Assembly (NCBI GenBank): GCA_012798435.1
Contig: JAAZNF010000118.1
Location: 1 to 64,000 of the forward strand
Source: Myxococcales bacterium
Lineage (GTDB): Bacteria > Myxococcota > B64-G9
Length of the DNA: 64,000 nucleotides
Direction: 5' to 3'
Both the position numbers and the translations under genes were made by a program. Under the pieces are notes generated by a model. That model was not told the DNA's origin and ran no database searches. It saw only the letters and a list, made by a program, of their open reading frames with translations. Every line of letters begins with the position of its first letter. The stretch's first letter is position 1. Below, piece after piece: positions 13,277 to 46,452 of this stretch.

Positions 13277-14236
13277 TCACGCCCACAGGCGCTCGCCGAG
13301 CTGCGCCAGCGCCTCCAGCCCGCGGATCACCGTAGGATGGCACTCGACCAGGCGCACCGGGACCTCGCCGGAGATGGCGCGGATGCGCCCGATCTCGCGC
13401 TCGTGAATGGCCCGCCGGGCGGCGCAGTGGGGGCAGGTGTCCGAGGCCGGCTGGAGCATGTTGACGAACAAGGTGCCCAGCGGGATGCCGTGATCCTTGA
13501 GTTGGCGGATGGTCCGCTCGCTCTCCAGCACCGAGATGGCCTCGGGGATGGTGACCAGCGCGAAGTGGGTGCGGCGCGGGTCGGTGAGCGCCGCGCGGGC
13601 CGCCTCCACCCGCTGCCGCGCCGAGGTCAGCCCCGTGTGCAGGGCCTCCTCGCCGGCGCGCCGGCCGGGCAGGATGCGGCGCACGGTGCGCCCCACCCAG
13701 GAGAAGGCGTCGCGCAGCGCCAGCATCTTGCCCAGCCAGCCGTCGAGCATCTGGGGCAAAAAGAGCAAGCGCAAGGCGTGCCCGGTGGGGGCGGTGTCGA
13801 AGATCACCGCGTCGTAGTCTTTCGAGCTCGCGGCCTCGATCATGAGCTCCATGGCCACCATCTCGTCGACCCCGGGGGCCTCCCCCAGCGGGCCCATGGT
13901 GTCGAGCAGGGCGCGTTGCAGGCGGCCCCGGCGGCCGCCCTCCTCGGCCGCGCCCCGCAGCATGCCGGTGGCCGCCGCCCAGCGGGCGCTGGCGTCGATC
14001 TCCAGGGCCCGCAGGTTTGCGGCCAGCTCCGCCCCGCGGTCGCCGATGGTGCGGTCGAACACATCGGCCAGGTTGTGGGCCGGATCGGTGGAGGTGATCA
14101 GCACCCGCCGGCCCCGCCGGGCGAGGTGCGAGGCGGTGGCCGCGGCCAGGGTGGTCTTGCCCACCCCGCCCTTGCCCGAGAAGAAGAAGATGCGCGGCCC
14201 CTCCAGGGCTGGAGCGGATGAGGTGGTGGCGTCCAT
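13277..14236 (-). CDS. ArsA/Get3-family P-loop ATPase (single ATPase domain, C-terminal CxxC).
   Basis: Deviant Walker A (FFSGKGGVGKTTLAA). TDPAHNL switch motif. C-terminal CPHCAARR. 319 aa, i.e. one ATPase domain rather than the pseudo-dimeric ArsA. Confidence 0.75.
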   Translation of the reverse strand: MDATTSSAPALEGPRIFFFSGKGGVGKTTLAAATASHLARRGRRVLITSTDPAHNLADVFDRTIGDRGAELAANLRALEIDASARWAAATGMLRGAAEEGGRRGRLQRALLDTMGPLGEAPGVDEMVAMELMIEAASSKDYDAVIFDTAPTGHALRLLFLPQMLDGWLGKMLALRDAFSWVGRTVRRILPGRRAGEEALHTGLTSARQRVEAARAALTDPRRTHFALVTIPEAISVLESERTIRQLKDHGIPLGTLFVNMLQPASDTCPHCAARRAIHEREIGRIRAISGEVPVRLVECHPTVIRGLEALAQLGERLWA

Positions 14237-14357: not shown

Positions 14358-14487
14358 GTAGCCTCCGCTCGGCTTATGCCGTCAAGGGCCTTCGGTCGCT
14401 GCGCGATTCGCTCTGCTCACCCTTGACGGCAGCCGAGCTGCGGCTCAATCCGCCATCATGAGGAGCATGAAGGCATGCTCCTCCTGG
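14358..14487 (+). repeat. Copy A of a dispersed, structured intergenic repeat of about 130 bp (family: copies A-F).
   Basis: Begins GTAGCCTCCGCTCGGC. Internal inverted repeat GCCGTCAAGGG ... CCCTTGACGGC. Ends in a palindromic hairpin GAGGAGCATGaaggCATGCTCCTC. Coordinates are approximate to a few bp. Confidence 0.7.
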
Positions 14488-14618
14488 TGGACCAGGCCGT
14501 CCAGCTTGTTCGGGTTTTTCCTTGAATCAGCGGGATCAAGTCTTCCCCGAAGAAGATGGAGGTTCGGGTTGCCGGAGGTGCGGTCAGCGAGTCTGGGATG
14601 ATGGGTTTCTGCCCCGCC

Positions 14619-15749
14619 TCACAGCGGGTTGCCGCAGTTGCCGCAGAACTTGGTGCCGGGGGCGTTGTCGGCCTGGCACTTCGGGCACTTGCCGCCGGTC
14701 GCCTGCAGGGGCGCGCCGCACTGGCCGCAGAACTTGGTGCCGGCCGGGTTGGGGGCCTTGCACTTGGGGCAACTCACGCCCGCGGCGAGCGGCGCGCCGC
14801 ACTGGCCGCAGAACTTGGTCCCGGCCGGGTTGGGGTGCTGGCACTTTCCGCAGGCCAGCATGGCGCCCGCCATGGCTCCCCCCGCGGCCGCCCCCGTCCC
14901 CGCCTGGGGCATCATGCCGGCCATCATGTTGGGCATCATCATGCCCATGCCGAAGCCCAGCCCCGCCCCCACGCCCGCGCCGGCCGTGCCGCCCGGCTGG
15001 TTGGCGGCGTCCTGCAGGGCCTGGGCGGCCTTGAACTTCATGTACTGGTCCAGGTTGCCCACCGCCGCCATGGCCGAGCGCTCGTCGATCTTCTTCTGCA
15101 CCTCCTCGGGCGGGGTGATGGCGTTGATGATGAAGTCCTCGCAACCGATGCCGTACTTGGCGAAGTCGTCGCGCACCCGCGCCTTCATGCCGGTGCCGAT
15201 CTCGTCGTAGTAGCGCGGCAGATCGAAGACGCTCTTCAGGTTTTCGCCCAAGAAGTCCGCCAGCCGTCCGATGACGATGCCGCGCAAAAAGTCCTCGATC
15301 TGCTGCGTGCTGTACATGCCCTGGGTGCCCACGATCTTGTTCACGAAGAGCTGGGCGTCCTCGACCTTGAAGGACATGATGCCGAAGGCCCGCAGGCGCA
15401 CCAGCGAGAGCTCGGCGTCGCGGAAGGCGATGGGCTCCTTGGTGCCCCACTTCTGGTTGGTGAAGACCTTGTGGTTGACGAACACCACCTCGGCCTTGAA
15501 GGGCGTGTCGCCCTTGAACACCGCCAGGCCGATGGCCTTCATCAGGATGGGCACGTTGCCGGTGGTCAGGGTGTGCCGGCCGGGGCCGAAGGTGTCCAGG
15601 GCCTTGCCGCCCCGGAAGAACACCGCGCTCTGGCTCTCGCGCACGATCACCTGCGCCCCGAGCTTGAGGTCGGCCTCGCCGCTGGGGGGAAAGCGGCTGC
15701 AGATGAGTTCGCCGGTATCGTCCAACGACTGCACTACTTCGACGAGCAT
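14619..15749 (-). CDS. SPFH/Band-7 family protein (YdjI-like) fused to three C-terminal zinc-ribbon modules.
   Basis: SPFH-like core. After a Gly/Ala/Met-rich linker come three near-identical CxxC-N9-CGxCG units (CGKCQHPNPAGTKFCGQCGAPL, CPKCKAPNPAGTKFCGQCGAPL, CPKCQADNAPGTKFCGNCGNPL). Confidence 0.8.
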   Translation of the reverse strand: MLVEVVQSLDDTGELICSRFPPSGEADLKLGAQVIVRESQSAVFFRGGKALDTFGPGRHTLTTGNVPILMKAIGLAVFKGDTPFKAEVVFVNHKVFTNQKWGTKEPIAFRDAELSLVRLRAFGIMSFKVEDAQLFVNKIVGTQGMYSTQQIEDFLRGIVIGRLADFLGENLKSVFDLPRYYDEIGTGMKARVRDDFAKYGIGCEDFIINAITPPEEVQKKIDERSAMAAVGNLDQYMKFKAAQALQDAANQPGGTAGAGVGAGLGFGMGMMMPNMMAGMMPQAGTGAAAGGAMAGAMLACGKCQHPNPAGTKFCGQCGAPLAAGVSCPKCKAPNPAGTKFCGQCGAPLQATGGKCPKCQADNAPGTKFCGNCGNPL

Positions 15750-16706: not shown

Positions 16707-19700
16707 TCAATGGAAGTCGGGACAGCCCGGCACGGTGGCCGGGCAGACGGAGAGCCGCTGGATGCGGCCGGGGACACCGTCGACGCGGATGCGGGCCAGC
16801 ACGAACCGGCGCTGGGCGTCGGCGCCGAGCAGATCCTCTCGCGGATAGCCCGGAGCGTTCGGATCGAAGATCCCGGTGACCAGGCGGTAGGTTCCCGGGA
16901 CCGCGCCGGCCGGAAGCGAGAGGACGCGGCGCAGCTCGCGGCGCCGAGCCAGGAGGGGCCAGCGCTCGAACGGGATGGCCGGGTCGTAGTCGGCGTTCAC
17001 CACGATGGCATCGTTCTCGTCGACGAGGTGCAAGAAGATGCGGCGGCCGGCGGGGACGGGGCGTTCCAGCCACCACTCGGTCATGGTCTCGAACGAGAGG
17101 TCGCCGGTCTGGCGCAGCAGCACCAGGCGGGGCTCCGCCCGGGTCCGGTCCTCGAAACGCATCCCGTCGCCGCCCTCGATGGTGAGGGCGCCGAGCCGGA
17201 GGGCGTGGTCGGCCCGCTCGGTGACGATGGGCAGGCGGGGCCAGGGCGGGTCGGGATCGAACAGGCCCGCGATCACCTCGAAGGTGCCGCCCTGCGAGAA
17301 GGTCATGAGGTGTGGCCCATCGAGGATGGCCTGGCCGGTCTCCCAGGTCGCGGGCGAGGAGGGCGGCCCGTGATCGGCGTTGCTCACGATCACGCCCCCG
17401 GCGTCCACCCCGTGCAAGAAGACCTGGAGCCCGGCGGGCAGCGTCCCGCGCGGCTCGAGCGAGCGCCATTCCAGCGTGAGCCGCGCCGCGTCCGGGGGCA
17501 AAGGCTCGAACGAGACCACCCGCGCGCTCACCCGGTAGCGCAGGTCGGCGGGCTGCGGCGTCCCTGCGGGGAAATTCTCCGCCTCCAGCGTCCAGGTGTC
17601 GCGGTCGGTGCGGGTGCGCACCCCGCCGGAGAAGTCCGCCTCCTCGCGCATGAATCGGTCGTCGAGGAAGCGGTGGGCCGTCATGGCCTCGGTGGCGACG
17701 GCCTGGTGCAGGCGCGCCTGGCGGTTCGCCGTCCGCCGCGCCAGGGGATCGGCGGCGGCGGTGTCGAGACCGATCATGGGGACACCCGCCGCCAGCCAGG
17801 CGTGCAAGGCCGTCTCGCGCGCCTCGCCTTCCAGCACGGGCCAGGGGACCAGGATGGCATCATGGTATGAAAGTTCGAGGAGCGGCGCCGGGATCCCGAC
17901 CGGGGTGCCGTACACGGAATCGGCCCAGCGGTAGCGCCCGTCCGCCGCCTCGGGATCATAGGTTCGCAAATAGTTCGACCAGTAGATGTGGTCCAGGTGC
18001 GGCACGGCCCAGTCGGCCATCTGCTCGCTGGCGGTGAGGAGGCCGCGGCGGGACAGCTCCGCGAACATCTGCGCGCGGAAGGCCAGGCTCTCGGGGCGCC
18101 TCATGCGGTGGACGGCGTCGAAGCACTGGTCGGCGCTCACCGCCGTGAAGACGTCCAGGTACACCCCGCCCGGGACCACGCCGAGCGCTCCGAGCGCGTC
18201 ATAGTTGCGAATCAGGTACGGCAGCGCCCGGCTGGCGCACAGGATCTGTTGTGGGCCACCGGCCCAGAAGTCGATGACCGGCGGCAGCGAGCCGTCCCAT
18301 TGTTTGATGGCGTCCGTGCCGCCCGCGTACGACGGGGCGTCGAGGTAGAAGTCGCGGTAGTTGTCGTGCAACTCGAGCAGGAAGTCCTGCACCGGAGGGG
18401 TTCGCCCCAGGGCCTCGGCCATGGTGACGAAATCGGCCGTGCCTCCAGCCTGGGCGCACGGCCCGCAGTCCGGCGATCCGTCGGGAGCGGGCCGGCAGGG
18501 CGAGAGAGGATAGATGACGTCCGGGTGGAGGTTGTCGTAGCCGCGTTGTCCCCAGCCGTCCACGTGGACCACGCCGCGCACGATGGGCTCTTCGGCCGCG
18601 CTGGCGATGGCCACGGTCTTGGCCGCTACCTCCAGGAAGGAATCGCCGCAGTACATCCGGCCGCAGGGACACTGCGCCGGGTCGTCCGGCCGCGGGCAGG
18701 GGTGGTGCACGTCGTAGTAGCAGGTGCTGGCGGGGAAGAACACGCCGCCCAGCATCTTTTCGAGAGAGGGTTTGGCGGCTCGTTTTTCCGAAAGGGAGCG
18801 GAACCTCCCCGCTGCGCGGGCGAACTCGCGGTAGCGAAGCGCCAGGGTCGCATGGTCACCGCGATCGAAGGGAACGTACGACAGCTCGCGCCGCCCTCCA
18901 TCCCGGAACAGATCGAGCGCAGCGCGGAAGGTCGGGGTCACCCGCGGCGCCTCGCCGGTCACCTGGTGCACCCGCAGCGAGGCGTCGGCCTCGCCGTGCA
19001 CCACCACCAGCAGCGCCCGGCCGTCCGACTCCACCGCCCCGAACCACGGCATCCCCCATCCGGCGCTGGCTCCCTCCCATTCGGTGTGGAACACCGCCCG
19101 GCCGTCCTCGACGTACGACCAGATGCGGGTGGGAACCACCCAGCCCACCGGCAGCAGCAGGCCGTGCCAAAGCGGCAGCACAGCGTACCCGCTCCCGGGG
19201 ACCGAGAGCCGCGGCGCGTAGGGGAAGTACAGCCGGTCGAGATCCAGGCCGTAGTACTCGCCGTCGTTGACCGAGAGCCGGACGCGCACCTCGTCCGCGC
19301 CGGGCTCGAGGCACACCTCCCAGGTGAGGTCGATGTTCGTGTCCGCCAACGTACCCGGCGTGGCTTCGACGGGCAGCCGGGAGAAGACGGTGCGCGCGCA
19401 GCCGCGGTTCCCCTCCCACAGGGGGTTCTGCAGGATGCTGCGGGCGTCCGCCGGCGCGATGGTGCGCCACGGCCCCAGGTTGTCGCAGCGGCTCTCGCCG
19501 GCCTGGAGGATGCACACGATGTCGTGGTCCTCGGCATCCCGGTCCATGACCCAAGGGACACCGCCGATCCGGCCCACCTCCAGGCGGCCGTCGGGGCAGG
19601 CCCGGGCGAACACGCGGTCGTTCGCCACCCGCAGGCAGTTGCCATCCGCCTCTACGCTGACCCGCGCCACGCAGCGCGCGCGGCCGAGATCGCACGCCTG

Positions 19701-20513
19701 CTCCCGCTCGCAGTCGCCGTCGCTCGCGCAGCCGCAGACCCCGGCGATGCAGGCCTGGCCGGCTTCCGAGCCGCGGCAGTTCAGACAGGCTGGACCGCAG
19801 TGCGAGGCGCTGTCGCAAGCCCGGCACATCTCGGCATCGCACCACTCTCCGCCGGGGCAGGAGGTGCAGATCCCGCCACAGCCATCGTCGGCGCCGCCGC
19901 AGCGGCCCTGACAATCCGGCTGGCAACCGGTGCACCTGGCGTCTGCGCACACCTCGCCGCTCAGGCAGTCGGTGTCCGACAGGCAGCCGCAGGCCGCGTT
20001 CACGCAGGCGCGGTTGTTGCCCTGGACCTGGCAATCGAGACAGGCGGGGCCGCAATGCGCGGCGCTGTCGCAGGCCCGGCATCTCTCGGCATCGCACCAC
20101 TCTCCGCTGGGACAGGAGGTGCAGCTTCCGCCGCAGCCGTCGTCGGCACCGCCGCATCGTCCGCTACAATCCGGCACGCAGGCCTGGCAAGCGTTGGTGA
20201 GACACACCTCGCCGCGCTGGCATTCGGCTTCGCTGGTACAGCCGCAGACGCCAGCCACGCAGGCGCGGTTCGTGAGCCCGAGGGTGCAATCGCGGCAGTC
20301 GGCTCCGCAATGATTTGCCTGATCGCAGCGAAGGCAGCGGTCGCCGTCGCAGAACCACCCCGCCGGGCACCCCTCGCCGCAGCCGCGCGGCACGCAGCGG
20401 CCGTCTACGCAGATCAGCGTGCCGTCGCAATCGGTGTCGACCTCACAGGCCTCATCCTTGGGGCAGGCGGTGAGGAGCACGAGGGGCAATAAGCACAGGA
20501 GTCGTGCGGTCAT
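16707..20513 (-). CDS. Large lipoprotein (1268 aa) with N-terminal Myxococcus-type cysteine-rich repeats and an uncharacterised C-terminal domain of about 950 aa, possibly glycoside-hydrolase-like.
   Basis: Lipobox (LLTACPKDEA). Five or more tandem units of the form C..GCP.G..C....C..C....HCG..C..C. Long C-terminal region contains a VHVDGWGQRGYDNLHPD motif. An antisense shadow ORF (17988..20492 +) is rejected. Confidence 0.75.
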   Translation of the reverse strand: MTARLLCLLPLVLLTACPKDEACEVDTDCDGTLICVDGRCVPRGCGEGCPAGWFCDGDRCLRCDQANHCGADCRDCTLGLTNRACVAGVCGCTSEAECQRGEVCLTNACQACVPDCSGRCGGADDGCGGSCTSCPSGEWCDAERCRACDSAAHCGPACLDCQVQGNNRACVNAACGCLSDTDCLSGEVCADARCTGCQPDCQGRCGGADDGCGGICTSCPGGEWCDAEMCRACDSASHCGPACLNCRGSEAGQACIAGVCGCASDGDCEREQACDLGRARCVARVSVEADGNCLRVANDRVFARACPDGRLEVGRIGGVPWVMDRDAEDHDIVCILQAGESRCDNLGPWRTIAPADARSILQNPLWEGNRGCARTVFSRLPVEATPGTLADTNIDLTWEVCLEPGADEVRVRLSVNDGEYYGLDLDRLYFPYAPRLSVPGSGYAVLPLWHGLLLPVGWVVPTRIWSYVEDGRAVFHTEWEGASAGWGMPWFGAVESDGRALLVVVHGEADASLRVHQVTGEAPRVTPTFRAALDLFRDGGRRELSYVPFDRGDHATLALRYREFARAAGRFRSLSEKRAAKPSLEKMLGGVFFPASTCYYDVHHPCPRPDDPAQCPCGRMYCGDSFLEVAAKTVAIASAAEEPIVRGVVHVDGWGQRGYDNLHPDVIYPLSPCRPAPDGSPDCGPCAQAGGTADFVTMAEALGRTPPVQDFLLELHDNYRDFYLDAPSYAGGTDAIKQWDGSLPPVIDFWAGGPQQILCASRALPYLIRNYDALGALGVVPGGVYLDVFTAVSADQCFDAVHRMRRPESLAFRAQMFAELSRRGLLTASEQMADWAVPHLDHIYWSNYLRTYDPEAADGRYRWADSVYGTPVGIPAPLLELSYHDAILVPWPVLEGEARETALHAWLAAGVPMIGLDTAAADPLARRTANRQARLHQAVATEAMTAHRFLDDRFMREEADFSGGVRTRTDRDTWTLEAENFPAGTPQPADLRYRVSARVVSFEPLPPDAARLTLEWRSLEPRGTLPAGLQVFLHGVDAGGVIVSNADHGPPSSPATWETGQAILDGPHLMTFSQGGTFEVIAGLFDPDPPWPRLPIVTERADHALRLGALTIEGGDGMRFEDRTRAEPRLVLLRQTGDLSFETMTEWWLERPVPAGRRIFLHLVDENDAIVVNADYDPAIPFERWPLLARRRELRRVLSLPAGAVPGTYRLVTGIFDPNAPGYPREDLLGADAQRRFVLARIRVDGVPGRIQRLSVCPATVPGCPDFH

Positions 20514-20668
20514 GACGTCCCTCTCTTTCTAGGGCTAGCGTCGATTCTGCTCCAATTCGAGCACCTTGCGCAATCCAGACGCGCCAGCCGCTGCTATTTC
20601 TCGTGGACCCGCGGTCGATCGCGAGTGTACTTGACAGGGATGACCCCCTTGGGCATGGTCAGGCCGGC

Positions 20669-23113
<2,445 letters not shown>

Positions 23114-23215
23114 AGAAGATGGCCGAAAATCGCCTTGACACTCCCTTCCAAATCTGATTTTGATTCGGTCACGGTGAAGGGTTGGCACACTCCAAATCCT
23201 CCGAAGGTGAAACCC

Positions 23216-24370
23216 ATGAGGAACGTTCTCTCGGTCATGTGGATCGCGGTCCTTGGCGGGCTGCCTGCCGGGGCCCTGGCCTCGGCGTTCGATGACCACA
23301 CCAACTGGCAGCAGGAACCGATGCTGGAGACGGCGAAGCCCTTGTCTCTGGGACGTTCGGTCCTGGAGATGGGTACCGGCCTGCGCTATCTCAACAGTAC
23401 GGAATTTTTCAACTCCGGCGGCAAGATTCAGGAGGCGCCCTACAAGTACAACATCTACACCTGGGACTTCTTCATGCGTTTCGGCTTCACCGAGAACTGG
23501 ACCCTGTGGGCCAACCTGCCGGTGGTGTGGAGCGAGCTTTCCAACTACAAGGCCATCCAGCAGGACCGCCAACGCAAGACGAGCGGCAAGCTGGGCGATT
23601 CCGACGTGGGGGTGTTGTACCAGTTCTTCCACCATGCCGACCCGATGGTTTCCATGGCCTTCCAGATCCGCTGGCGGCTGCCCACCGGCGCCGAGGCGCC
23701 GGGCCAGCACGACGTGAACATCGCCGGCACCGGGCTCACCGACGTGGACATCTCCTACCTGGGGCGCATCCAGCCCTTCCGCAACCTGAGCCTGGGCTGG
23801 GGCCTGGGCTACAACATCCGCTTCCCGGGCGCGGTACAGTACATCAACGACCAGGCGCTGGACAGCTCGTTCACCAACAACAAGCTGGATCCCGGCGACG
23901 AGCTGTACGGCCAGGCCGACGTCACCGCGGCCATCGACTGGGTGTCTCTCCAGGTGCTGTTCCGCTTCATGTACCGGCTGCCCACCCAGATGGCGTCGCC
24001 GGAGTTCAAGTTCCAGACCATGAAGTGGAAACTCCCCAACGGCGAGGAGGTCTCCGAGGAGTACGTGGTGTTCAACGGGGCCACCTACCACGACCTGGAC
24101 GTGCGCGAGAAGCTACAACCGGCCGGCAAGCTGGTGAGCTCGGCCGGATACCTGTTCACCATACAGCCGCGCATCATCGTGCGCCCGGTGGACTGGCTGG
24201 ATCTCACCCTGTTCGCCAAGCTCTATCCCATCGGACAGAACAGCATCTACGTCCACAACAGCGCCGGCGACAACCCCAGCGTGGACAACTTCATGCCCAT
24301 GCAGGCCCTGGGCACCAAAATGGGGATCCTCCTGGGTGAGGTCGGGGGATCGCTGACCTACCGCTGGTAG
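23216..24370 (+). CDS. Outer-membrane beta-barrel protein (transporter-like).
   Basis: Signal peptide (MRNVLSVMWIAVLGGLPAGALASA). Alternating aromatic/hydrophilic beta-strand pattern. C-terminal ...LTYRW. Confidence 0.55.
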   Translation: MRNVLSVMWIAVLGGLPAGALASAFDDHTNWQQEPMLETAKPLSLGRSVLEMGTGLRYLNSTEFFNSGGKIQEAPYKYNIYTWDFFMRFGFTENWTLWANLPVVWSELSNYKAIQQDRQRKTSGKLGDSDVGVLYQFFHHADPMVSMAFQIRWRLPTGAEAPGQHDVNIAGTGLTDVDISYLGRIQPFRNLSLGWGLGYNIRFPGAVQYINDQALDSSFTNNKLDPGDELYGQADVTAAIDWVSLQVLFRFMYRLPTQMASPEFKFQTMKWKLPNGEEVSEEYVVFNGATYHDLDVREKLQPAGKLVSSAGYLFTIQPRIIVRPVDWLDLTLFAKLYPIGQNSIYVHNSAGDNPSVDNFMPMQALGTKMGILLGEVGGSLTYRW

Positions 24371-24397
24371 GCGGCCATCCGGTCAAGCGGAGGAATC

Positions 24398-27300
24398 ATG
24401 CGCAGCCAGAGAATCTTCGCCCTTTGCGCCCTGTTCGGCCTGCTCGCCGCCACGCCCTCGGCGGAGGCGGGCTTCTACAAGCGGGGTCACTGGTACTACG
24501 ACGCCAGCTACCCCGATGTGGAGTGGCTCAGCGTCGACACCGAGCACTTCGTCATCCACTACTACCCGGAGATCGAGTTCACCGCGCGGATGATGGCCAA
24601 GTACGCCGAGATCATGTACCCCAAGGTCACCGGCATGTTCGACTTCCCCCTCAAGGAGAAGGTGCACATCATCCTGCGCGACCAGGAGGAGAACGCCAAC
24701 GGCTTCGCGGTGTACAACAGCGACTGGGTGACGGTGTGGGCCACCCCGCTGTACTACCCGCTGCGCGGGCGCCAGGAGTGGATCCCCGACTGCGTCACCC
24801 ACGAGTTCACCCACATCGTCTCGCTCAAGGCCCAGGACTGGAAGTCCGAGGCCGCCTTCATCGTGCTGGCCTCGGGGCTCATCGAGGACGGCACCCACAA
24901 CCTGGACATCGGGGCCCAGGTGCTGATCGGCTTCAACGAGCCTTACTGGTGGGCCGAGGGCGTGGCCGAGTACGGTGCGCACATGGCGGGCTTCAACTGG
25001 TGGACCACCGCCCGCGACATGATGCAGCGCTCGAGCTTTTTGGAGGACAACTACCTCACCTACCACGAGATGTTCACCCCCGGCAACAAGGACTCGGGCT
25101 TCGACCGCGAGCGCGGCTACCAGCAGGGCTACGCCACCGCGCTCTACGTCATGGAGAAGTTCGGCAAGGAGCAGTTCGCCCAGCTCGCCGTCAACTCGGG
25201 CAAGAAGGGCCACCTGTCCTGGGACAAGAACATCGAGGACGTGCTCGGAATCGACGGCCAGACGCTGTACGAGGGCTGGGTCAAGTGGATGAAGGAGCGC
25301 TACGATCGCCAGGTCGAGCCCATCCGCAAGGCCGAGCACGTGGGGCGCGACCTGACCCGCACCAGCCGCGGCGAGGAGGTCGACGTGGTGGAGCGTCTGC
25401 CGGACGGGCGCTGGAAGATGGAGCTGGGCCGGCGCCACTTCCCCGATCCCCCGCCCCTGGACGAGGAGGAAGCCAAGGCCCAGGAGGAGGACCGCAAGGC
25501 CGAGCAGAAGCCCCGCTACGAGTACTGGGACAAGAAGCGGCGCAAGCGCTTCTTCGAGAAGGACGGCAACTGGAACATGCTGCCCAAGGCCTCGCCGGAC
25601 GGGCGCTTCACCGCTTTCGGAACCCGCAAGGGCATCATGGTGTACCCCATCGGCGCCGACGAGTGGCCGACCTTCTCCGGGCACTACCTCAACAGCAAGC
25701 GCGCCGAACAGGCGGCGGAGAACCTCAAGCTGGTCCCCGAGGCGTCGGTGTTCAACGGCTACGACTTCAGCCCCGACAGCCGCAAGATCATCTACTCCTC
25801 GATCGGGTGCCCGAACAGCTGGGCGCCCTGCGTCAGCATGGACGGCTACTACCGCTACGACCTCTACACCTTCGACATCTTCACCGAGGAGGTGGAGCGC
25901 CTGACCCGCCGGCTGCGGGCCATCGCGCCGGCCTATTCGCCGGACGGCAAATGGATCGCCTTCGTGCGCATCGAGGACGGCCAGAACTGGCTGGGCGTGT
26001 TCCCGGCCGACGCCCGCGACGTGGCCGCGGACGGGACCTGCACCATCAACGGCCAGGAGCGGAAGGACTGCATCACCTGGCTCATCAAGCGGCGCGACGG
26101 CACCCAGCTGGGCGCCCCCAGCTGGAGCCCGGACTCGCAGAAGATCGTCATCGACCTCTATCGCAACCGCCAGCAGGACGTGTGGCTGGTGAACGCCGAC
26201 GGCAGCGGTCTTCAGCCGCTCACCTGGGATCGGGCCGAGGACCGGGACAGCCTGTTCACCCGGGACGGCAAGCACGTTCTCTACATCTCCGACCGCACCG
26301 GCATCTACAACGCCTACATCATGGACCTCGAGACCCGCAAGGTCACTCAGCTCACCAACGTGACCAACGGCGTGTTCACGCCCTTCCTCACTCCCGCCGG
26401 CAACCTGATGTACGCCTACTTCACCTCCTACGGCCTGCGCGTCTACGGGCACCACCGCGACAACTTCTACAACCAGCCGGTCGAGGCGGGCTACGACGTG
26501 ACCCCGGAGGAGGTGGCGCGCTTTTTGGCCTACGAGGAGCCGCTGCCGGAGATCCGCGACAAGAGCTACTCCTACAACCCCTTCTCGCCCAAGAACTGGA
26601 TGCCCATCGAGGGCATCCCGCTGTTCATCTACGAGCGCAAGGGCACCGAGATCGGCGTGCAGACCGTGCTGGCCGACTACCTGGAGAAGCACCGCATGAT
26701 CGCCACGGTGCTACTGGGCCAGCAGATGCTCTACGCCGTCAACTACACCAACAACTTCTGGTACCCGTCGTTCTTCATCGACTGGGCCCACGCGGACTTC
26801 GCCTTCGAGTTCACCCAGCAGATCCCCACCGGCGGGCCCTTCCCCACCAACGTGACGCCCCACTTCGGCGCTCCGCTGGTGTACAAGGGCCGCCAGTCGG
26901 TGGACTGGGGCGAGGCGGGCATGGAGCTGGTGTTCAACGACCTGTGGTGGATCGATCTCATGTACAAGTACCGCTACTACGCTTCCACCGAGGCCACCGC
27001 CAACCAGGCCCGCGCCTCGGCCTTCCTCACCAACAACAGCTATGGCATCGAGATGTACTACAACGGGATCAACCCGTACGCCGCCGAGGGCGACGTGAAC
27101 CCGCGCGGCCGCTCGCTGGCCATCGAGTACTGGTTCACCCGCACCGGTTTGCCCACCCGCCAGTTCGCGGACGTGGAGTGGCTGGGGCGCACCAACCCGC
27201 CGGGGGACTCGTCGGACGACTATACCCTCCACGAGATCCAGGTGGGCTACCGCGAGGCCATCCCCATCATGTGGTGGAACGACCAGGGCGACCACACCCT

Positions 27301-27943
27301 GGAGTTCAACTTCCGCGCCGGCTGGCAGAACCGCAACGTGTTCCGCTGGGACGAGTTCTTCGGCGGCTCTTTGCACCCGCAGCGCTTCGTGCCCACCCAG
27401 TCCACCACCAACGAGTTCGCCGGCTACCCACCCTTCTCCATCTCGGGCGAAACCATGCTGATCTTCAGCATGAACTACCGCTTCCCGTTCTGGCGTAAGA
27501 TCGACAAGATGTTCGGGCCCTTCTACTTCGCCTCGCTGTGGGGCGAGGTGTCGTTCACCGCCGGTAACCTGTGGGGCTACACCGCCGACTACGTGCACGA
27601 TCGCTACGGCAACATCCAGCGCAACGGCGAGAGCTACTGGGATCCGGCGGTCCAGCCAGGGACGGTGCGGCGCGAGGTCCCGTTCGTGGACGTGTCGGCC
27701 AAGAACGGCAACTACATGTTGTACGACGTGGGCTTCACCCTCAAGCTCAAGGCCTACATGTTCGGCTACATCGGCTGGAACAGCTTCATCCGGGTGGCCT
27801 ACCCGTTCAACACCATCAACGGGGCGGTGGACGTCAACAACGACGACGTGTTCGTCGACGCCTTCCCCAACGACGCCTTGAAGGCCGAAGTCAAGCGCAA
27901 GGCCCTGCGCTTCTCCATCGGCATCGGCTCGGACTTCGACTGA
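24398..27943 (+). CDS. Large secreted or outer-membrane-associated protein (1181 aa): N-terminal HExxH (zincin-like) region, TolB-like PD40 beta-propeller repeats, aromatic-rich C-terminal region.
   Basis: Signal peptide (LFGLLAATPSAEA). HEFTH motif. Repeated SPDG.../DG..LY units. Charged KR/E linker. Confidence 0.7.
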   Translation: MRSQRIFALCALFGLLAATPSAEAGFYKRGHWYYDASYPDVEWLSVDTEHFVIHYYPEIEFTARMMAKYAEIMYPKVTGMFDFPLKEKVHIILRDQEENANGFAVYNSDWVTVWATPLYYPLRGRQEWIPDCVTHEFTHIVSLKAQDWKSEAAFIVLASGLIEDGTHNLDIGAQVLIGFNEPYWWAEGVAEYGAHMAGFNWWTTARDMMQRSSFLEDNYLTYHEMFTPGNKDSGFDRERGYQQGYATALYVMEKFGKEQFAQLAVNSGKKGHLSWDKNIEDVLGIDGQTLYEGWVKWMKERYDRQVEPIRKAEHVGRDLTRTSRGEEVDVVERLPDGRWKMELGRRHFPDPPPLDEEEAKAQEEDRKAEQKPRYEYWDKKRRKRFFEKDGNWNMLPKASPDGRFTAFGTRKGIMVYPIGADEWPTFSGHYLNSKRAEQAAENLKLVPEASVFNGYDFSPDSRKIIYSSIGCPNSWAPCVSMDGYYRYDLYTFDIFTEEVERLTRRLRAIAPAYSPDGKWIAFVRIEDGQNWLGVFPADARDVAADGTCTINGQERKDCITWLIKRRDGTQLGAPSWSPDSQKIVIDLYRNRQQDVWLVNADGSGLQPLTWDRAEDRDSLFTRDGKHVLYISDRTGIYNAYIMDLETRKVTQLTNVTNGVFTPFLTPAGNLMYAYFTSYGLRVYGHHRDNFYNQPVEAGYDVTPEEVARFLAYEEPLPEIRDKSYSYNPFSPKNWMPIEGIPLFIYERKGTEIGVQTVLADYLEKHRMIATVLLGQQMLYAVNYTNNFWYPSFFIDWAHADFAFEFTQQIPTGGPFPTNVTPHFGAPLVYKGRQSVDWGEAGMELVFNDLWWIDLMYKYRYYASTEATANQARASAFLTNNSYGIEMYYNGINPYAAEGDVNPRGRSLAIEYWFTRTGLPTRQFADVEWLGRTNPPGDSSDDYTLHEIQVGYREAIPIMWWNDQGDHTLEFNFRAGWQNRNVFRWDEFFGGSLHPQRFVPTQSTTNEFAGYPPFSISGETMLIFSMNYRFPFWRKIDKMFGPFYFASLWGEVSFTAGNLWGYTADYVHDRYGNIQRNGESYWDPAVQPGTVRREVPFVDVSAKNGNYMLYDVGFTLKLKAYMFGYIGWNSFIRVAYPFNTINGAVDVNNDDVFVDAFPNDALKAEVKRKALRFSIGIGSDFD

Positions 27944-28075
27944 GCCAGACCCGCGGACCATCCTTCATCTCCCCCGCCCGCCGGACCGTCATCTCAGACG
28001 GTTGCGATCCGAGTTGACAGCCTCCGACGTCGTTTCCACCGATGCATATCCCCTTTGCTGCGGTTGCTACCAGGC

Positions 28076-28203
28076 GTAGCCTCCGCTCGGCTTGCGCTGT
28101 CAAGGGCCTTCGGTCCCTTCGGGATTCGCTTCGCTCGCCCTCGACGGCGGTCGGGCTTCGGCTGAAATCGCTAATGTGAGAAGCATGCAGGAATGCTTCT
28201 CCT
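28076..28203 (+). repeat. Copy B of the dispersed structured repeat.
   Basis: GTAGCCTCCGCTCGGCTTGCGCTGTCAAGGG ... CCCTCGACGGCGGTCGGGCTTCGGCTGAAATCGCTAatgtGAGAAGCATGcaggaATGCTTCTCC. Confidence 0.7.
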
Positions 28204-28326
28204 TGTCCAGGAAGACCCAATTCATAGGAGGCGATGTGCAGTTCGCAAGCCGCACAGACTCGGCCGAGATGCCGGGTCGCTCGGACGCGGGTTGTGCGCC
28301 GATGCGAGGTGTGCCACGATTCCGAC

Positions 28327-30636: not shown

Positions 30637-30811
30637 GAAATTCCTGGCAACAGAGGCCGCGAGATAACTCCGATTTTCGAGATTTCGCGAACGTGTTGGC
30701 TGTGACGCCTCCGAAGGTCCCCGGTAGCTTGATAAATCGCGTCTGGCCGCGCTTGCACTTTGAGCATCGCAGCTAGCAGCACAAATCGTTCTACATAGTC
30801 TTCCTGGAAAA

Positions 30812-30937
30812 GGAAGGCATGCTTGCATGGTCTTCATATTTGCGGATTCAGCCGAAGCCCGACCGCTGTCAATGGTGAGCGTAGCGAATCGCGAAGCGAT
30901 CGAAGACCATTGACAGCGACGGTCGGGCGGAGGCTAC
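30812..30937 (-). repeat. Copy C of the dispersed structured repeat (reverse orientation).
   Basis: The reverse complement reads GTAGCCTCCGCCCGACCGTCGCTGTCAATGG ... CCATTGACAGCGGTCGGGCTTCGGCTGAATCCGCAAATATGAAGACCATGCaaGCATGCCTTCC. It carries compensatory changes relative to the other copies. Confidence 0.65.
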
Positions 30938-41245: not shown

Positions 41246-41352
41246 CCTTCCTCCCGGGGCACACGATCCCGTCGCGCGCTTGTCCTCCCCCTACCAGAAT
41301 CCGCGGGGGCTGGCAAGGGCGCGACGCAGGTTGGGGAGGCGAGGAGAAGACG

Positions 41353-41550
41353 ATGTCCGTGACCGGCCAGGCCATCCTCATGACCCTGTTCATGGCATAC
41401 TCGATCGGGTTCTTGTTCTTCATCGCGCGCGCCTCGGCGCGGCACGCTCCAGAAGCGGCACCGAAAAAACACACCCGCCTCGTCACCGGCGTGCTGGTGC
41501 TGGGCCTGCCGCTGTGCCTGCTGGTGTTGCTGGCCGGGCTGTTGCAGTAG
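41353..41550 (+). CDS. Small membrane protein (65 aa, 2 TM).
   Basis: Internal Met of ORF 41059..41550 preceded by GAGGAGAAGA 3 nt upstream. Hydrophobic segments (AILMTLFMAYSIGFLFFIA; LVTGVLVLGLPLCLLVLLAGLL). Confidence 0.4.
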   Translation: MSVTGQAILMTLFMAYSIGFLFFIARASARHAPEAAPKKHTRLVTGVLVLGLPLCLLVLLAGLLQ

Positions 41551-41612
41551 CGCCCGGACCATCCCCCCGTCTCCCTCCACGCAGCGGCGCTCGCTTGGTC
41601 ACATTTGCAGGT

Positions 41613-41740
41613 GTAGCCTCCGCCCGACCTTTGCCGTCAAGGGTTTTCAATCGCTTCGCGACTCGCTGCGCTCGCCCTTGACGGTGGTCGGGCTTCGGCT
41701 GAAATCGCTACCATGAAGAGCATGCGGTCATGCTCTTCCT
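41613..41740 (+). repeat. Copy D of the dispersed structured repeat.
   Basis: GTAGCCTCCGCCCGACCTTTGCCGTCAAGGG ... CCCTTGACGGTGGTCGGGCTTCGGCTGAAATCGCTAccatGAAGAGCATGcggtCATGCTCTTC. Confidence 0.7.
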
Positions 41741-41774
41741 CCATGAGGAAGATGAGATGATCCGGCTTGAGAGA

Positions 41775-41808
41775 CTGGCCGCGATGCCGTCAGAGCAAGC
41801 GCGGCCAG
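41775..41808. terminator. GC-rich hairpin between convergent genes (CTGGCCGCG-N16-CGCGGCCAG). Possible bidirectional terminator, with no U-tract.
   Basis: Perfect 9-bp inverted repeat about 35 bp after repeat D and about 220 bp beyond the stop of the LTD gene. Confidence 0.2.
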
Positions 41809-42028
41809 CCGCATTCTGCCTCACCCCCAGGTCTTGATCTCTTCATCCTTATCCCCTCGCTCCACTGTGGGGAGGGGGTCAGGGGGTGAGGTGCAACAAA
41901 GGGGGATGGTTTGATAGCCAGCGCGAACGGCGAAGGGGAGGTGTAGGCGCTCCCTGGGGAGACGCCCGCTCGCGGCATTCAGGGGTCAGGAGAGGGGCAG
42001 ACGGGGAGGAGGGAACGGGGTGCTGGCC

Positions 42029-44926: not shown

Positions 44927-44999
44927 CTCCTTTCGCCCGAAGGCAAGAATGAGCTTGGGGTCGCAGCCGGAGCCATTATGCGAGGCGGTTTTATCGCCG

Positions 45000-46370
45000 T
45001 CAAGGCTCGCCGAAGAGGCGCCGCACCCGCTCCGCCCAGCGGTCCAGGTTTACCGGATCGCGCGGGTGGCCCGCGTAGAGGGCCTGGGCGGCCGCCATGC
45101 GCCCAAGGTGCGGGGCGAGTCGCAGGGCGAGCGCGGGTGCGCGCAGCAGGCCGACGCCCAACGTGGGCAGGCGCACGTCGCGCAGCGTGGGGACGCGGTG
45201 CGCAAGAGAGGCTCGCAGGGCGCCCTCGGACACCATCCCGGCGCGGATGACTCCTTCCACCTCGGCACCGGAGAGGGACTGCGTCATGCGGCAGAAGGCG
45301 TCGGCGGCCGCCAGCGTCCCGCCATGCTCGCGCTGGAACGACTCCTGGTAGGCCCAGGCGGCGGCAAGACTCCCCGGGTCGTCGTGGGCGCGGACCGCGC
45401 CGGCCAGCGTCTTTCCCGAGAGCAGGCCATATCCCACGCCACTGCCGTGGGCCGCGAACACCATCGAGGCCGCGTCGCCGATCAGGGCGACGCCCTCCGC
45501 GGCGATGCGCTCGAACGGCCGGCGCAACGGGATGACGCCCGCGCCGCCGAAGAGTCGCTCGCCGAGCCAGCGGTTCTTCTCGACGAAGGCCGTCAGGTGC
45601 TCGGTGGGCGACCGGTGCTGTCCGCCCGCCACCGTCCCGCACAGCAGGGCGGCCCGCTCGGTCGCCTCGTCGATGGTCAGGGTGAGCACCGAGAAGCCGC
45701 CGTCGATGCCGGTCCAGGACAGGGTCTCCCCGGGCCGGCAACCAGACTCCTCCATGAATCGCGCCGCGCCCTTCCGGTCCGAGATGATTCGAACCTCCTG
45801 CTGGGCCTGGCACAGCCGGTCGCCGACGGGGGTGGGGCAGAAGCGTTGCAGAGCCGGGATGTGGCGGCGCAAGGCGCCGGCGAGCCCGCTCGCGTCCACG
45901 AACAGCCGGGCGCGAAAGGTGTGAGCCCTCTCTCCGCCTCGCCGATCGGTCGTGTGCGCCGTCAGGGCCACCGGCCGATCGGCCTCGAAAGAAAGCTCGC
46001 TGGCGCGGCAACGATCGACCAGCCGCGCCCCGGCCGCCACGGCCTCGTCCTGCAGGCGGCGCACCAGGAGCCGCATGTCGCAGAACAGGAGCGGATTCTC
46101 GGGCAACACCACCCGGAACCCGCCGCTCGGGCCGAGCACGGAGAACGGCCCCGGGCCGAAGGTGCGTTCGTCCCCCTGCGGCAGGGCCACGCCGGCCGCC
46201 TCGAACATCCAGGCGGGCACGCCGTTCACCCAACGAGCGCCCGCCTGATCCCGCGCGCGCTCTTCGAGGAGCGCCACCCTGCGGCCGTCCCGGGCCAGAC
46301 AGGCCGCGGCGAAGGCGCCGGCGCTGCCGCCGCCCACCACCACCACGTCGAAGGACATCTGGCGAGGCAT
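45000..46370 (-). CDS. FAD-dependent oxidoreductase (geranylgeranyl-reductase / flavin-monooxygenase-like family).
   Basis: N-terminal dinucleotide-binding motif (FDVVVVGGGSAGAFAAACLARDGRRVALLE). Confidence 0.65.
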   Translation of the reverse strand: MPRQMSFDVVVVGGGSAGAFAAACLARDGRRVALLEERARDQAGARWVNGVPAWMFEAAGVALPQGDERTFGPGPFSVLGPSGGFRVVLPENPLLFCDMRLLVRRLQDEAVAAGARLVDRCRASELSFEADRPVALTAHTTDRRGGERAHTFRARLFVDASGLAGALRRHIPALQRFCPTPVGDRLCQAQQEVRIISDRKGAARFMEESGCRPGETLSWTGIDGGFSVLTLTIDEATERAALLCGTVAGGQHRSPTEHLTAFVEKNRWLGERLFGGAGVIPLRRPFERIAAEGVALIGDAASMVFAAHGSGVGYGLLSGKTLAGAVRAHDDPGSLAAAWAYQESFQREHGGTLAAADAFCRMTQSLSGAEVEGVIRAGMVSEGALRASLAHRVPTLRDVRLPTLGVGLLRAPALALRLAPHLGRMAAAQALYAGHPRDPVNLDRWAERVRRLFGEP

Positions 46371-46452
46371 GACGCTCTTCTACCGCGAGCTTCCCGGGTG
46401 ATTCAAGGCCGAGCCCAACCAGCTCCGGGATCCATAGAGAATGCCTACAAGC

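Follow-up and report, generated by a model that had tools for sequence, protein, structure and literature searches.

A structured, non-coding repeat is present in five full copies and one truncated copy in the window, that is, the whole 64,000-nucleotide stretch analyzed here, and about 38 copies are found overall when those in a related metagenome-assembled genome (MAG) and in metagenome contigs are included. It is the fold of this element that is selected, and the element is probably not an RNA gene but a non-coding DNA repeat dispersed within one lineage, of the REP/REPIN/BIME kind although larger and more elaborate in structure.

On the strand read in the first-pass annotation (hereafter the annotated strand), the element starts with a (G)TAG head, which is followed by P1, a helix interrupted by a 3x3 internal loop, with 3-4 bp on one side of the loop and 8 bp on the other; together with the 11-bp P2 it forms a long closing stem. 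This stem leads into a perfect four-way junction with zero unpaired junction bases, the remaining three arms of which are the mini-hairpins P3, P4, and P4b. A linker then connects the core to a 10-bp hairpin, P5, whose 3' arm can pair instead with a downstream purine run (P6), and the two hairpins are mutually exclusive in about 18 of 28 copies. The unit is 134-152 nt long, the P1-closed core measures 86-104 nt, and the inverted arms of 19-22 nt lie ~72 nt apart. Within the head, T-A-G is invariant in 30/30 copies, while the base before it varies (G, 20 copies; C, 5; A, 3; T, 2); the tag bases A3 and G4 pair with the P1a 3' strand (AU in 23/27 and GC in 30/30, respectively). The 5' box, internal inverted repeat, core, complementary 3' segment, and terminal hairpin described earlier were all seen again by direct reading and alignment, but the three stems proposed at that time are in fact six or seven helices.

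Copy A is full length (14358-14492, plus strand; covariance model score, 149.5 bits); its core spans 14360-14445, with P2 at 14378-14430, P3 at 14389-14395, P4 at 14396-14406, and P4b at 14407-14419, and its P5 hairpin is at 14460-14483 on the plus strand. It is flanked by an ArsA-type ATPase gene (13277-14236) and an SPFH/zinc-ribbon gene (14619-15749), both on the minus strand, and the z-scores of its folds, as RNA and as DNA, range from -4.9 to -6.7. Copy B (28076-28210, plus strand; 134 bits; core, 28078-28163; P5, 28178-28201), located between a PD40 gene ending at 27943 and a subtilase gene with its ATG at 28234, is full but hybrid, because a CTCGGC-type 5' strand and a GGTCGGG-type 3' strand in its P1 give three G·T pairs; the MAG carries its ortholog (L002), inside which the contig breaks. 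Copy C, on the minus strand (30804-30937; 137 bits; core, 30935-30850), is full with a decayed P5 (30835-30813) and occupies the convergent spacer between a subtilase gene (end, 30636) and a zinc-ribbon gene (end, ~31012). Its rare subtype markers, TCAATGG/CCATTGA and GCTACGCTC, are both also present in the MAG (L041:2628-2760), and the TCAATGG marker is readable at L044, where the copy is cut by the contig end. Copy D (41613-41747, plus strand; 147.7 bits; core, 41615-41700; P5, 41715-41738; alternative hairpin P6, ~41733-41752) is full and lies between two genes that are both on the minus strand. Copy E (46964-47115, plus strand; 122.9 bits; core, 46966-47069; P5, 47083-47106) is also full, with P3 lengthened by a GCGGGC-TTC-GCCCGC hairpin, and is situated within a hydrogenase operon, between the large-subunit gene, whose stop is at 47297, and the gene for the maturation protease. 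Copy F (62555-62640, plus strand), recognized by sequence reading, is a 3'-truncated relic: the 5' box (one mismatch) and the 5' strand of P2 (degenerate) are retained, as are an extended P3, P4, and part of P4b, but the 3' strands of P1 and P2 and the P5 hairpin are lacking. All six copies previously proposed in the window therefore exist, although the sixth starts at 62555 instead of 62565 and is a truncated copy of ~85 nt.

The 5' box TAGCCTCCGCYCGRC matched at 14359, 28077, 41614, and 46965 on the plus strand, at 30936 on the minus strand, and, with one mismatch, at 62556 on the plus strand; 1.68 matches were expected in the window, and six were reached in 0/100 shuffles. Similarly, the core CGCTTCGCGAYTCGCT gave five matches in the window against 0.23 expected. 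A covariance model search of the window recovered the known copies and none beyond them, copy F not being among the matches listed at E <= 1. Among 185,579 GTDB species genomes, only the MAG GCA_964561025.1 was positive, with 25 pattern matches, many of which are at contig ends, and the repeat had no match in any other of these genomes. The repeat breaks the assemblies of these MAGs, many contigs ending inside it. Seven further copies were found on metagenome contigs and others at orthologous sites, bringing the number beyond the window to 30 or more; the family is thus dispersed well outside the 64 kb in which it had been noticed. In contrast, blastn searches against 72,556 plasmids and 50,697 phage records gave no match to the repeat.

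The model comprises 42 base pairs in 7 helices. In an alignment of 30 copies, 97.6% of the 1246 paired cells were complementary, compared with 88.3% in column shuffles and 30-43% with slid partners, and two-sided changes occurred in 19/42 pairs (136 cells); no measure was reached in any of 500 shuffles, and a 21-copy MAFFT alignment agreed with this result. Even the pairs that define the junction vary on both sides: pair 32-56 is CG in 16 copies and UA in 14, pair 59-66 is GC in 15 and CG in 14, and pair 69-82 is CG in 17 and UA in 11. Because 42/66 combinations of covarying pairs showed all four states, with changes reassorted among helices, the covariation is not an artefact of two subfamilies. 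An orthologous pair, copy C of the window and L041, differs by T-A to C-G at 68-81 (columns of the 21-copy alignment). The compensatory differences reported earlier (CTCGGC/GCCGAG in copies A and E, CCCGACC/GGTCGGG in C and D, TCAATGG/CCATTGA in C, and the variants of the terminal hairpin) were confirmed, and covariation far above the shuffled and slid controls bears out the selection on structure that they had suggested.

The loops of the element differ between the two strands. On the annotated strand, T-N-C loops are found in the P1 internal loop in 30/30 copies on both sides, in P4 in 28/30, in P4b in 23/30, and in P3 in 20/30, and T-N-C on this strand is G-N-A on the complement. Canonical X-C-GNA-G-X' heptamers in the 30 cores numbered 70 on the complement versus 1 on the annotated strand; those on the complement include GCGAAGC, GCGCAGC, and CCGAAGG, of which each element has two or three at the tips of P3, P4, and P4b, and the closing pair is C·G in most mini-hairpins. 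A G-N-A loop closed by C·G is the sequence rule of unusually stable DNA mini-hairpins: d(GCGAAGC) melts at 76.5 °C, as does the related 8-mer d(GCGAAAGC), whereas r(GCGAAAGC) melts at 39 °C (PMC13037366). In addition, folding with DNA parameters favored the complement by 0.6-3.1 kcal/mol in 4/4 copies tested. The 70 to 1 ratio and the T-N-C loops indicate folded single-stranded DNA, and the folding strand is most likely, judging from these loop sequences, the complementary DNA strand and not the annotated one. Strand assignment from wobble pairs was also attempted and gave no signal; the 21-copy alignment held 10 G·T and 7 A·C cells, five of the ten G·T cells being supplied by copy B, and wobble pairs made up ~1% of cells on either strand.

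A functional RNA, either an independently transcribed small RNA family or a 3'-UTR/intercistronic module that stabilizes, terminates, or regulates the neighboring mRNA, as has been proposed for REP, ERIC, and bcr1 elements, seems to us an unlikely account of these observations. Strong single-strand folding (z-scores of -4 to -6.7 for most copies) and extensive covariation would fit such an RNA, as would the switch-like alternation of P5 and P6, and at copy E the complement of the 5' box gives GGAGG and in-frame ATGs just upstream of the protease start codon. Furthermore, 22/24 copies lie downstream of at least one gene and would be transcribed by read-through; in many contexts the element is certainly part of the read-through RNA of upstream genes, and such RNA could be relevant. 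However, Rfam 15 gave 0 matches at the gathering score in the whole window, and at E <= 10 copies D and E gave only chance-level matches, at least 30 bits below gathering, and a known RNA family was rejected on this basis. The triloops follow the DNA mini-hairpin rule and are not RNA-favored tetraloops, wobble pairs show no strand-specific G·U excess, and most copies have no U-tract after their hairpins. The choice between a transcribed RNA and a protein-recognized DNA structure, both of which the first-pass annotation had offered, is thereby narrowed towards DNA. The covariation of such an element could easily be mistaken for that of a new RNA gene in structure-based screens.

The genomic context of the copies is typical of REPs. 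The spacers of 24 copies comprised 9 convergent, 13 co-directional, and 2 divergent ones, indicating that divergent (promoter) spacers are avoided, and in the co-directional spacers the two orientations were found 7 and 6 times, with no bias relative to transcription. A first tally had suggested an orientation bias (16/20), which became 7 versus 6 when convergent sites were excluded and more copies were added. On the P5 side, the neighboring gene converges on the element in 18/27 cases. Pfam searches showed the neighboring genes to be functionally unrelated (ArsA-type ATPase, SPFH, subtilase, TPR, LTD, and hydrogenase). In the window, A, B, D, and E (the last in an operon) lie between co-directional genes and C and F between convergent ones; the divergent context listed earlier was not found among the six. 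A riboswitch or 5' leader, an idea prompted by the Shine-Dalgarno-like purine arms and the alternative P5/P6 pairing, was rejected: in most copies it is the 3' end of a gene that faces the element, and the genes on either side are unrelated. An integron attC array is ruled out by the spacing of the window copies at 3-15 kb among housekeeping genes of both strands and by the lack of an integrase, and an intrinsic terminator by direct reading of P5 and P6, which have no T run in most copies (exceptions, L006 and L027).

Comparison of close relatives revealed turnover of the copies. Copy E was gained in the window lineage: distant relatives have just 4-15 nt in this spacer, and in relatives whose protease is 89-91% identical it is occupied by another hairpin module, without a core. 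Among the latter, the spacer of L034 is 175 nt long, and the contig of L046 breaks 70 nt upstream of the protease gene. At site A, the core has been deleted in the MAG, where only its first 10 nt survive together with the linker, P5, and P6, and in L051 it has been replaced by a 169-nt segment that has no repeat in the window or the related loci. Copy F and the copy in L012 are truncated. In-place inversion was found at two of the three sites with comparable orientation (B, C, and D): copy C lies at the same site in opposite orientation in L041 and L044, and copy D is opposite relative to the same flanking genes in L009 and L034:16389-16523. Another relative has near-identical copies at three different loci (L028, L029, and L034). 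A clean empty site was not found at the orthologous sites, where gain, deletion, replacement, and inversion were seen instead. These events between close relatives imply that single copies are dispensable, and they also speak against a functional RNA, since copies are lost, replaced, and inverted while the neighboring genes remain unchanged. Orthologous copies of the window and the MAG are identical at 194/213 positions, compared with 87-92.5% for third codon positions; conservation that is not clearly above third codon positions gives no sign of constraint on individual loci.

These data also bear on whether the element could be a DNA site kept for chromosome function instead of a selfish one. 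Candidates of this kind would be signals for single-strand initiation or for primosome loading, sites bound by gyrase or by a nucleoid protein, as for BIMEs, and targets of a site-specific invertase. GCGAAGC/CCGAAGG mini-hairpins are indeed a hallmark of single-stranded DNA priming signals and occur in the phage G4 origin and in ssiA of RSF1010 (PMC13037366), and the in-place inversions at two of three sites would also fit a host-serving site. Five of the six window copies share one orientation, but this is not significant. Because copies are gained, deleted, and replaced between genomes whose flanking genes encode 89-97% identical proteins, because the distribution is confined to one narrow clade, and because no copy lies in the 20-kb syntenic loci examined in relatives whose proteins are ~60% identical, we regard a host-serving site as very unlikely.

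Some copies are accompanied by additional modules. Beside copy D, a left arm of a long inverted repeat of ~50 nt (CCATCCCCCCGTCTCCCTCCACGCAGCGGCGCTCGCTTGGTCACATTT...) is located at 41559-41612 on the plus strand, and its partner, a palindrome plus GGGGTCAGGGGGTGAGGTGC, at 41853-41894. Homologous arms lie beside the copies in L005, L009, L010, L017, L019, L022, and L024; the long inverted repeats (GCACCTCGCCCCCTGAC..CTCCACAGTGGCTGTCTCTTGGTCACATTT and complement) are complete in L005 and L017, whereas the other six, including copy D of the window, are one-armed, and copies A, B, C, and E have no long arm. A different hairpin module, H (CTGGCCGCG-N16-CGCGGCCAG), was identified by regular expression 3' of copy D (41775-41808, plus strand) and 3' of copy C (30743-30776, minus strand), and related hairpins with different but complementary stems occur downstream of many copies and in arrays at L034:16180-16390 and 16758-16860. 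Direct reading of L005, L017, and L019 also showed short ORFs after P6 (M-F/L-x-R-L-V-A...PARPG); a small peptide was nevertheless rejected, and the ORFs were judged incidental, since they fall on the H hairpin and are interrupted in the C, D-type, and L022 copies.

The long arms raise the question of whether the element is a classical MITE, the real unit being ~300-340 bp with ~50-nt terminal inverted repeats and mobilized by a DDE transposase; the structured 135 nt would then be an internal passenger, and copies lacking the long repeats decayed remnants. The inverted repeats around the core in L005 and L017 and the single arms at six other copies would be explained in this way, recombination between arms would account for the in-place inversion of copy D, and the inner part of the long repeat resembles the Tn5 mosaic end. 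We nevertheless consider a MITE quite unlikely. Any part of an arm is present in only ~8 of ~38 copies, and the well-preserved copies A, B, C, and E have none; homology ends sharply at the (G)TAG head; no target duplication is visible at L005 or L017; and 19 covarying pairs are unexpected for passenger sequence. Moreover, the window and related loci hold no related transposase, and the plasmid and phage searches described above were negative. An IS4/Tn5-type MITE in particular was set aside because the Tn5-like stretch (CTGTCTCTT...CACAT) lies inside the longer inverted repeat, away from its tip, and is carried by a minority of copies.

As regards a mobilizing enzyme, Pfam analysis of the 39 ORFs of the window detected no transposase and no integrase, in agreement with the first-pass annotation, which had reported no RAYT or IS200-type transposase. 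When E. coli RayT and an IS200-like sequence served as tblastn queries against 419 kb (the window plus related loci), no RAYT/IS200-like gene was found (best E-value, 0.35), and no transposase gene was located beside any copy in the window or the related loci examined. In the sequence examined, the element thus has no transposase attached to it, as the terminal repeat of a known IS would have, and the earlier likening to REP/MITE-type dispersed families is supported, although any enzyme is conjecture given this lack of a transposase in the window and the 419 kb of related DNA. In the REP-like reading that we prefer, the element would spread, or would once have spread, as a non-autonomous unit, with single-stranded DNA as its active form; an enzyme whose gene lies elsewhere in the genome would recognize the folded single strand in trans, the obvious candidate being a HUH/Y1 transposase of the RAYT or IS200/IS605 type. 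If propagation were restricted to copies with an intact fold, this would explain why paralogs carry matched double substitutions, yet single copies are decayed, deleted, and flipped. The sequence signature, which points both to the folding strand and to DNA rather than RNA as its chemistry, provides a concrete substrate for finding the enzyme that recognizes it. We assign a small probability to another interpretation, in which the element is an unrecognized class of chromosomal single-stranded DNA structure, a G-N-A-tipped four-way junction, which a dedicated non-RAYT enzyme (possibly another HUH nuclease, a junction-specific recombinase, or a primase-like protein) copies and flips in place. 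If so, it would represent mobile or recombinogenic DNA of a new type and not an oversized REP.

REP and REPIN sequences are among the commonest bacterial non-coding repeats and are known almost only as short hairpins in Proteobacteria and a few other phyla; the present family would extend this kind of repeat to uncultured Myxococcota. Like the REPINs of Pseudomonas fluorescens SBW25, the family is non-coding, extragenic, and multi-copy within one lineage, with two inverted arms ~70 nt apart that can form a long hairpin in single-stranded DNA or RNA, frequent compensatory changes on both sides, decayed as well as intact copies, and mostly vertical inheritance with occasional gain (PMC3116915, PMC3337134). 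Unlike those of REPINs, the arms here are not themselves short GTAG-tagged palindromes, there is a single (G)TAG head, the spacer consists of three conserved mini-hairpins in a perfect four-way junction and not of a loosely conserved hairpin, and a P5/P6 hairpin module is appended. In REP/REPIN-RAYT systems, a cognate RAYT (Y1/HUH) gene is present in the genome, typically flanked by repeats, whereas no RAYT gene was found here in the 419 kb of the window and loci. The family also shares with GTAG-tagged REPs a G+C-rich palindrome that bears a GTAG-like motif at one end, a division into sub-families that differ by complementary changes in the stems, a location mainly in convergent and co-directional spacers, and, as in REP/BIME mosaics, clustering with other palindromic modules (PMC3733652). 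Indeed, the H hairpins and the GGGGTCAG-containing palindrome fit the GGGGWSAS motif of Di Nocera et al. 2013, whose survey reported no Myxococcota member (PMC3733652). GTAG REPs, however, consist of one stem-loop of 20-40 bp, in which the stem has 6-13 bp and the tag is unpaired (PMC3733652), while the element described here measures 105 nt, or 135 nt when P5 is counted, is three to four times as large as described REPs, and has six or seven helices and a partly paired tag.

A similar size class (100-170 bp) is that of the structured MITE-like repeats, such as bcr1 of the Bacillus cereus group, ERIC, and Correia/NEMIS, which have a non-conserved distribution in close relatives and gradual loss of structure in some copies, as seen here; bcr1 also has a cruciform-like predicted fold maintained by compensatory base changes (PMC3184786). 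Those elements end in inverted repeats, are flanked by short target duplications (5 bp in bcr1), and are discussed as RNA structures (PMC3184786), whereas in the present family no target duplication was seen, long inverted repeats are limited to a minority of copies, and the loop signature points to DNA. The element has exact heptamers in common with the d(GCGNAGC) DNA mini-hairpins of single-stranded DNA origins and initiation signals; the known occurrences of such hairpins are in origins and promoters of phages and plasmids and not in a dispersed chromosomal family or around a four-way junction (PMC13037366, PMC3201870). Compared with these systems, the family would show that a REP-like repeat can hold a complex and precisely maintained fold.

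The 5' box of the repeat, TAGCCTCCGCYCGRC, was matched six times in the window against 1.68 expected, a count reached by 0/100 shuffles, and the core, CGCTTCGCGAYTCGCT, five times against 0.23 expected, so the motifs reported by the first-pass annotation are present at their places far above chance. When the six sites (copies A to F) were read and aligned, every feature and compensatory difference listed there was recovered. Copies A (14358), B (28076, a hybrid), C (30804-30937, minus strand), D (41613-41747) and E (46964-47115) are full and scored 123-150 bits with a covariance model, whose E-values are rough and which found no further copy in the window. The sixth copy also exists, but only as a fragment truncated at the 3' side, with its start at 62555. 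Among the dispersed repeats of the window this family is dominant, the other reported repeat families being coding repeats. We also noted three tandem zinc-ribbon units of ~81-84 nt in an SPFH protein gene (14622-14861), a 235-nt duplication in a 1268-aa ORF (19691-20180) and tandem repeats of ~165-174 nt in an LTD/MopE-motif protein gene (42160-43270).

A 23-position pattern run against 185,579 species-representative genomes gave 25 matches, many at contig ends and all in one MAG, "uncultured Myxococcales bacterium" GCA_964561025.1. This MAG is closely related to the window organism (locus L002 is 94% identical to window 20122-28125), and locus L009 is 91% identical to window 41862-46384. A looser pattern recovered seven more real copies and two chance matches from metagenome contigs, and no copy was present in the syntenic 20-kb loci examined from relatives with ~60% identical proteins. 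Therefore, the family is real and dispersed beyond the window, as had been proposed, and is limited to a narrow clade.

The fold was derived by hand from an alignment of 21 full copies and then tested. Helix P1a (3-4 bp) is separated by a 3x3 internal loop, which we take to be tandem sheared G·A, from P1b (8 bp), which is followed by a 3-nt bulge on the 5' side and by P2 (11 bp). P2 leads to a four-way junction with zero unpaired nucleotides, where (21-copy numbering) pair 31-82 closes P2 and pairs 32-56, 57-67 and 68-81 open P3, P4 and P4b, respectively. P3 is a 2-bp triloop hairpin with a G+C-rich hairpin extension in 7/30 copies, P4 is a 4-bp triloop hairpin, and P4b consists of the closing pair, a 2x2 internal loop and a 2-bp triloop hairpin; the 10-bp hairpin P5 follows after a 14-nt linker. 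The outer stems were supported by thermodynamic folds. With 30 copies placed on the model, pairing held in 97.6% of the 1246 cells, compared with 88.3% for shuffled columns and 30-43% for slid partners. Two-sided changes occurred at 19 pairs (136 cells in all), and 0/500 shuffles reached any of five measures; the compensatory changes first read from the window copies thus lie above chance. Although this alignment was fitted to the model, an independent MAFFT alignment gave the same picture (97.4% of cells paired, 17 pairs with two-sided changes). Covariation was cleanest at the junction pairs. With one extra P4-loop column in the 30-copy alignment, 59-65 and 68-81 become 59-66 and 69-82, and the states were CG 16/UA 14 with zero exceptions at 32-56, GC 15/CG 14 at 59-66 and CG 17/UA 11/UG 1 at 69-82. 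All four state combinations were found in 42 of the 66 combinations of covarying pairs, and therefore the covariation is not an outcome of two sub-families. At junction pair 68-81 (21-copy numbering), copy C and its ortholog in L041 differ by a T-A to C-G change. Two independent truncated copies, F (62555-62640) and L012:7324-7385, both stop within or just after P4/P4b with only the 5' half left; their shared end point could be a coincidence or a preferred breakpoint.

The first-pass annotation had left a choice between a transcribed RNA and a DNA structure. A functional RNA would also fold through covarying stems, but it is unlikely, because several results argue against a strand-specific transcript: no Rfam family matches the element, wobble-type cells are few and show no strand asymmetry (10 G·T, of which hybrid copy B supplies five, vs 7 A·C), orientations in co-directional spacers are unbiased (7 vs 6), and the neighboring genes share no common function. 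The small loops read T-N-C on the strand on which the element was first written and G-N-A on its complement (P1 internal loop, 30/30 on both sides; P4, 28/30; P4b, 23/30; P3, 20/30). Heptamers of the form X-C-G-N-A-G-X' numbered 70 on the complement of 30 cores and one on the other strand, the commonest being GCGAAGC (24), CCGAAGG (13) and GCGCAGC (10). These are known "mini-hairpin" sequences, found in single-strand DNA origins such as those of phage G4 and ssiA; d(GCGAAGC) and d(GCGAAAGC) each have a melting temperature of 76.5 C, compared with 39 C for r(GCGAAAGC) (PMC13037366). Their stability rests on the C·G closing pair (PMC3201870). Folding with DNA parameters also favored the complement, by 0.6-3.1 kcal/mol in 4/4 copies tested. 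The loop signature thus argues for the DNA side of the choice, and we infer that the complementary strand, as single-stranded DNA, is the one whose fold is selected.

The gene content of the window is that of an ordinary chromosomal region, with rpoN, HPr kinase, PTS enzyme I, methionine synthase, an Mvh/Hdr-type hydrogenase cluster and two-component systems, and no transposase or integrase was found among its 39 ORFs, in agreement with the initial reading. The spacers of 24 copies with both neighbors called were convergent in nine cases, co-directional in 13 and divergent in two, the same distribution as reported for REPs (PMC3733652). Genes outside annotated loci were called by third-position G+C, a filter that missed a conserved ORF of ~65 aa at about 41250-41550 (minus strand), between copy D and a MobA-like gene, so that spacers near D are shorter than first tabulated. 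This ORF was also called in L034 and L035 (75% identity at the DNA level). The hydrogenase cluster (46453-53457), with HdrB- and HdrA-like iron-sulfur flavoproteins, FlpD/MvhD, NiFe hydrogenase small and large subunits and a maturation protease, is syntenic in several uncultured Myxococcota contigs and adjoins a sigma-54 activator.

Further modules accompany the core. A hairpin, P6, which re-uses the P5 3' arm, occurs in ~18/28 copies, and a separate hairpin module, H, lies ~40-60 nt downstream of many copies, with a conserved loop and stems that vary and stay complementary. H forms a second repeat family of ~40-nt hairpins with a GGGGCCGCAAGGAGCCAGCG-like loop and stems of 9-11 bp (GCGCGAACGC, GCGCGAGGCC, CCTGGTCGCG, CTGGCCGCG), located at window 41775-41808 (plus) and 30743-30776 (minus) and at L034:16180-16390 and 16758-16860. 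In a relative, four or more H units stand in tandem and the core can be absent (L034:16180-16390). Inverted repeats of ~50 nt bracket a minority of copies; their outer part is a palindrome followed by GGGGTCAGGGGGTGAGGTGC, seen as CCCCTC.CTCCAC(T/A)GTGG.GAGGGG followed by GTCAGGGGGTGAGGTGC at window 41853-41894, L034:16715-16755 and L042:110-150. A stretch in their inner part resembles a Tn5 end. Such repeats would suit a TIR-bounded MITE, which is nevertheless quite improbable, as at least two results conflict with it; consistent terminal repeats and visible target duplications are lacking. The palindrome region also contains GGGGTCAG, whose agreement with the GGGGWSAS motif described from inverted repeats around RAYT-like (TIRYT) transposase genes (PMC3733652) may offer a lead. 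In the metagenome copy L031:1459-1694, ~110 nt with two short hairpins, each followed by a T run (GGCACACCGGAGTGTGCC, CCAGGCTGTGCCTGGTTTTT), replaces most of the P2 3' strand.

Individual copies turn over between relatives. At site E, a spacer of 4-15 nt separates the genes for the hydrogenase large subunit and the protease in distant relatives; it contains H and no core in relatives with an 89-91% identical protease (175 nt in L034), and reaches 358 nt with copy E in the window. The complement of the copy E 5' box (46930-46975, minus strand) reads GGAGGCTATGATG, which puts a perfect Shine-Dalgarno sequence and a pair of in-frame ATGs 24-27 nt ahead of the annotated protease start, and therefore the insertion may have altered translation initiation of this gene. 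In the MAG (ArsA 97% identical), site A still has P6, P5, the linker and the first 10 core nucleotides but not the remaining core or ~80 nt beyond, while in L051:696-864 (ArsA 93% identical) an unrelated G+C-rich segment of 169 nt, not repeated in the window or the related loci compared, replaces the core between the retained P5 hairpin and downstream spacer. In L044:898-1052, the site B spacer of a relative whose subtilase is 83% identical, there is a canonical intrinsic terminator, AAAGCCCTCCCGG..CCGGGAGGGCTTTTTT, and no full core; GACTCGCCGTCAAGGG in this spacer may be what remains of two core segments now joined. A relative whose subtilase is 72% identical has no copy at site C, and the two genes overlap there. 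At sites C and D, orthologous copies share rare subtype markers, and the same genes flank them, but their orientation is reversed (window 30804-30937 vs L041:2628-2760; window 41613-41747 vs L009:5715-5770 and L034:16389-16523). Inversion in place thus occurred at two of three comparable sites (not B) between genomes ~90% identical; recombination of flanking inverted repeats, excision and re-insertion, and template switching are candidate mechanisms. Another relative has near-identical copies of one subtype at three loci (L028, L029 and L034), and the spacer that holds the L029 copy has another subtype in the MAG (L016). Orthologous cores were identical at 194/213 positions, not clearly less diverged than third codon positions (87-92.5%). 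Taking gain, loss, replacement and inversion together with this lack of clear extra conservation, each single copy behaves like dispensable DNA, whereas the fold is preserved across the family. A DNA site serving the host could account for a maintained fold, yet this reading is very unlikely, as two or more of the results conflict with it.

The pattern fits a non-autonomous element that requires the fold for its own propagation: only intact copies would give rise to new ones, such descent would keep the pairing among paralogues, and each copy would drift after insertion. We infer that the element is mobile. The loop signature of single-stranded DNA, the REP-like context, the (G)TAG head and the absence of both visible target duplications and terminal repeats common to the copies point to a putative HUH/Y1 transposase (RAYT or IS200/IS605 type) that would act in trans; no such gene was found in the 419 kb of window and related loci.

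Our full-text searches brought up no description of REP- or MITE-type repeats in myxobacteria, and a survey of GTAG/CGTC repeats lists none from this group (PMC3733652). The element resembles bcr1 in size and compensatory cruciform-like folding (PMC3184786) but differs in having no demonstrable target duplication, and its modules (core, P6, H and long inverted repeats) are arranged as a mosaic, like BIMEs. In its working it would be most like a REPIN, with inverted arms ~70 nt apart, a single-stranded-DNA hairpin and frequent compensatory changes (PMC3116915), although its size, arm structure and single, partly paired tag set it outside the REP/REPIN definition.
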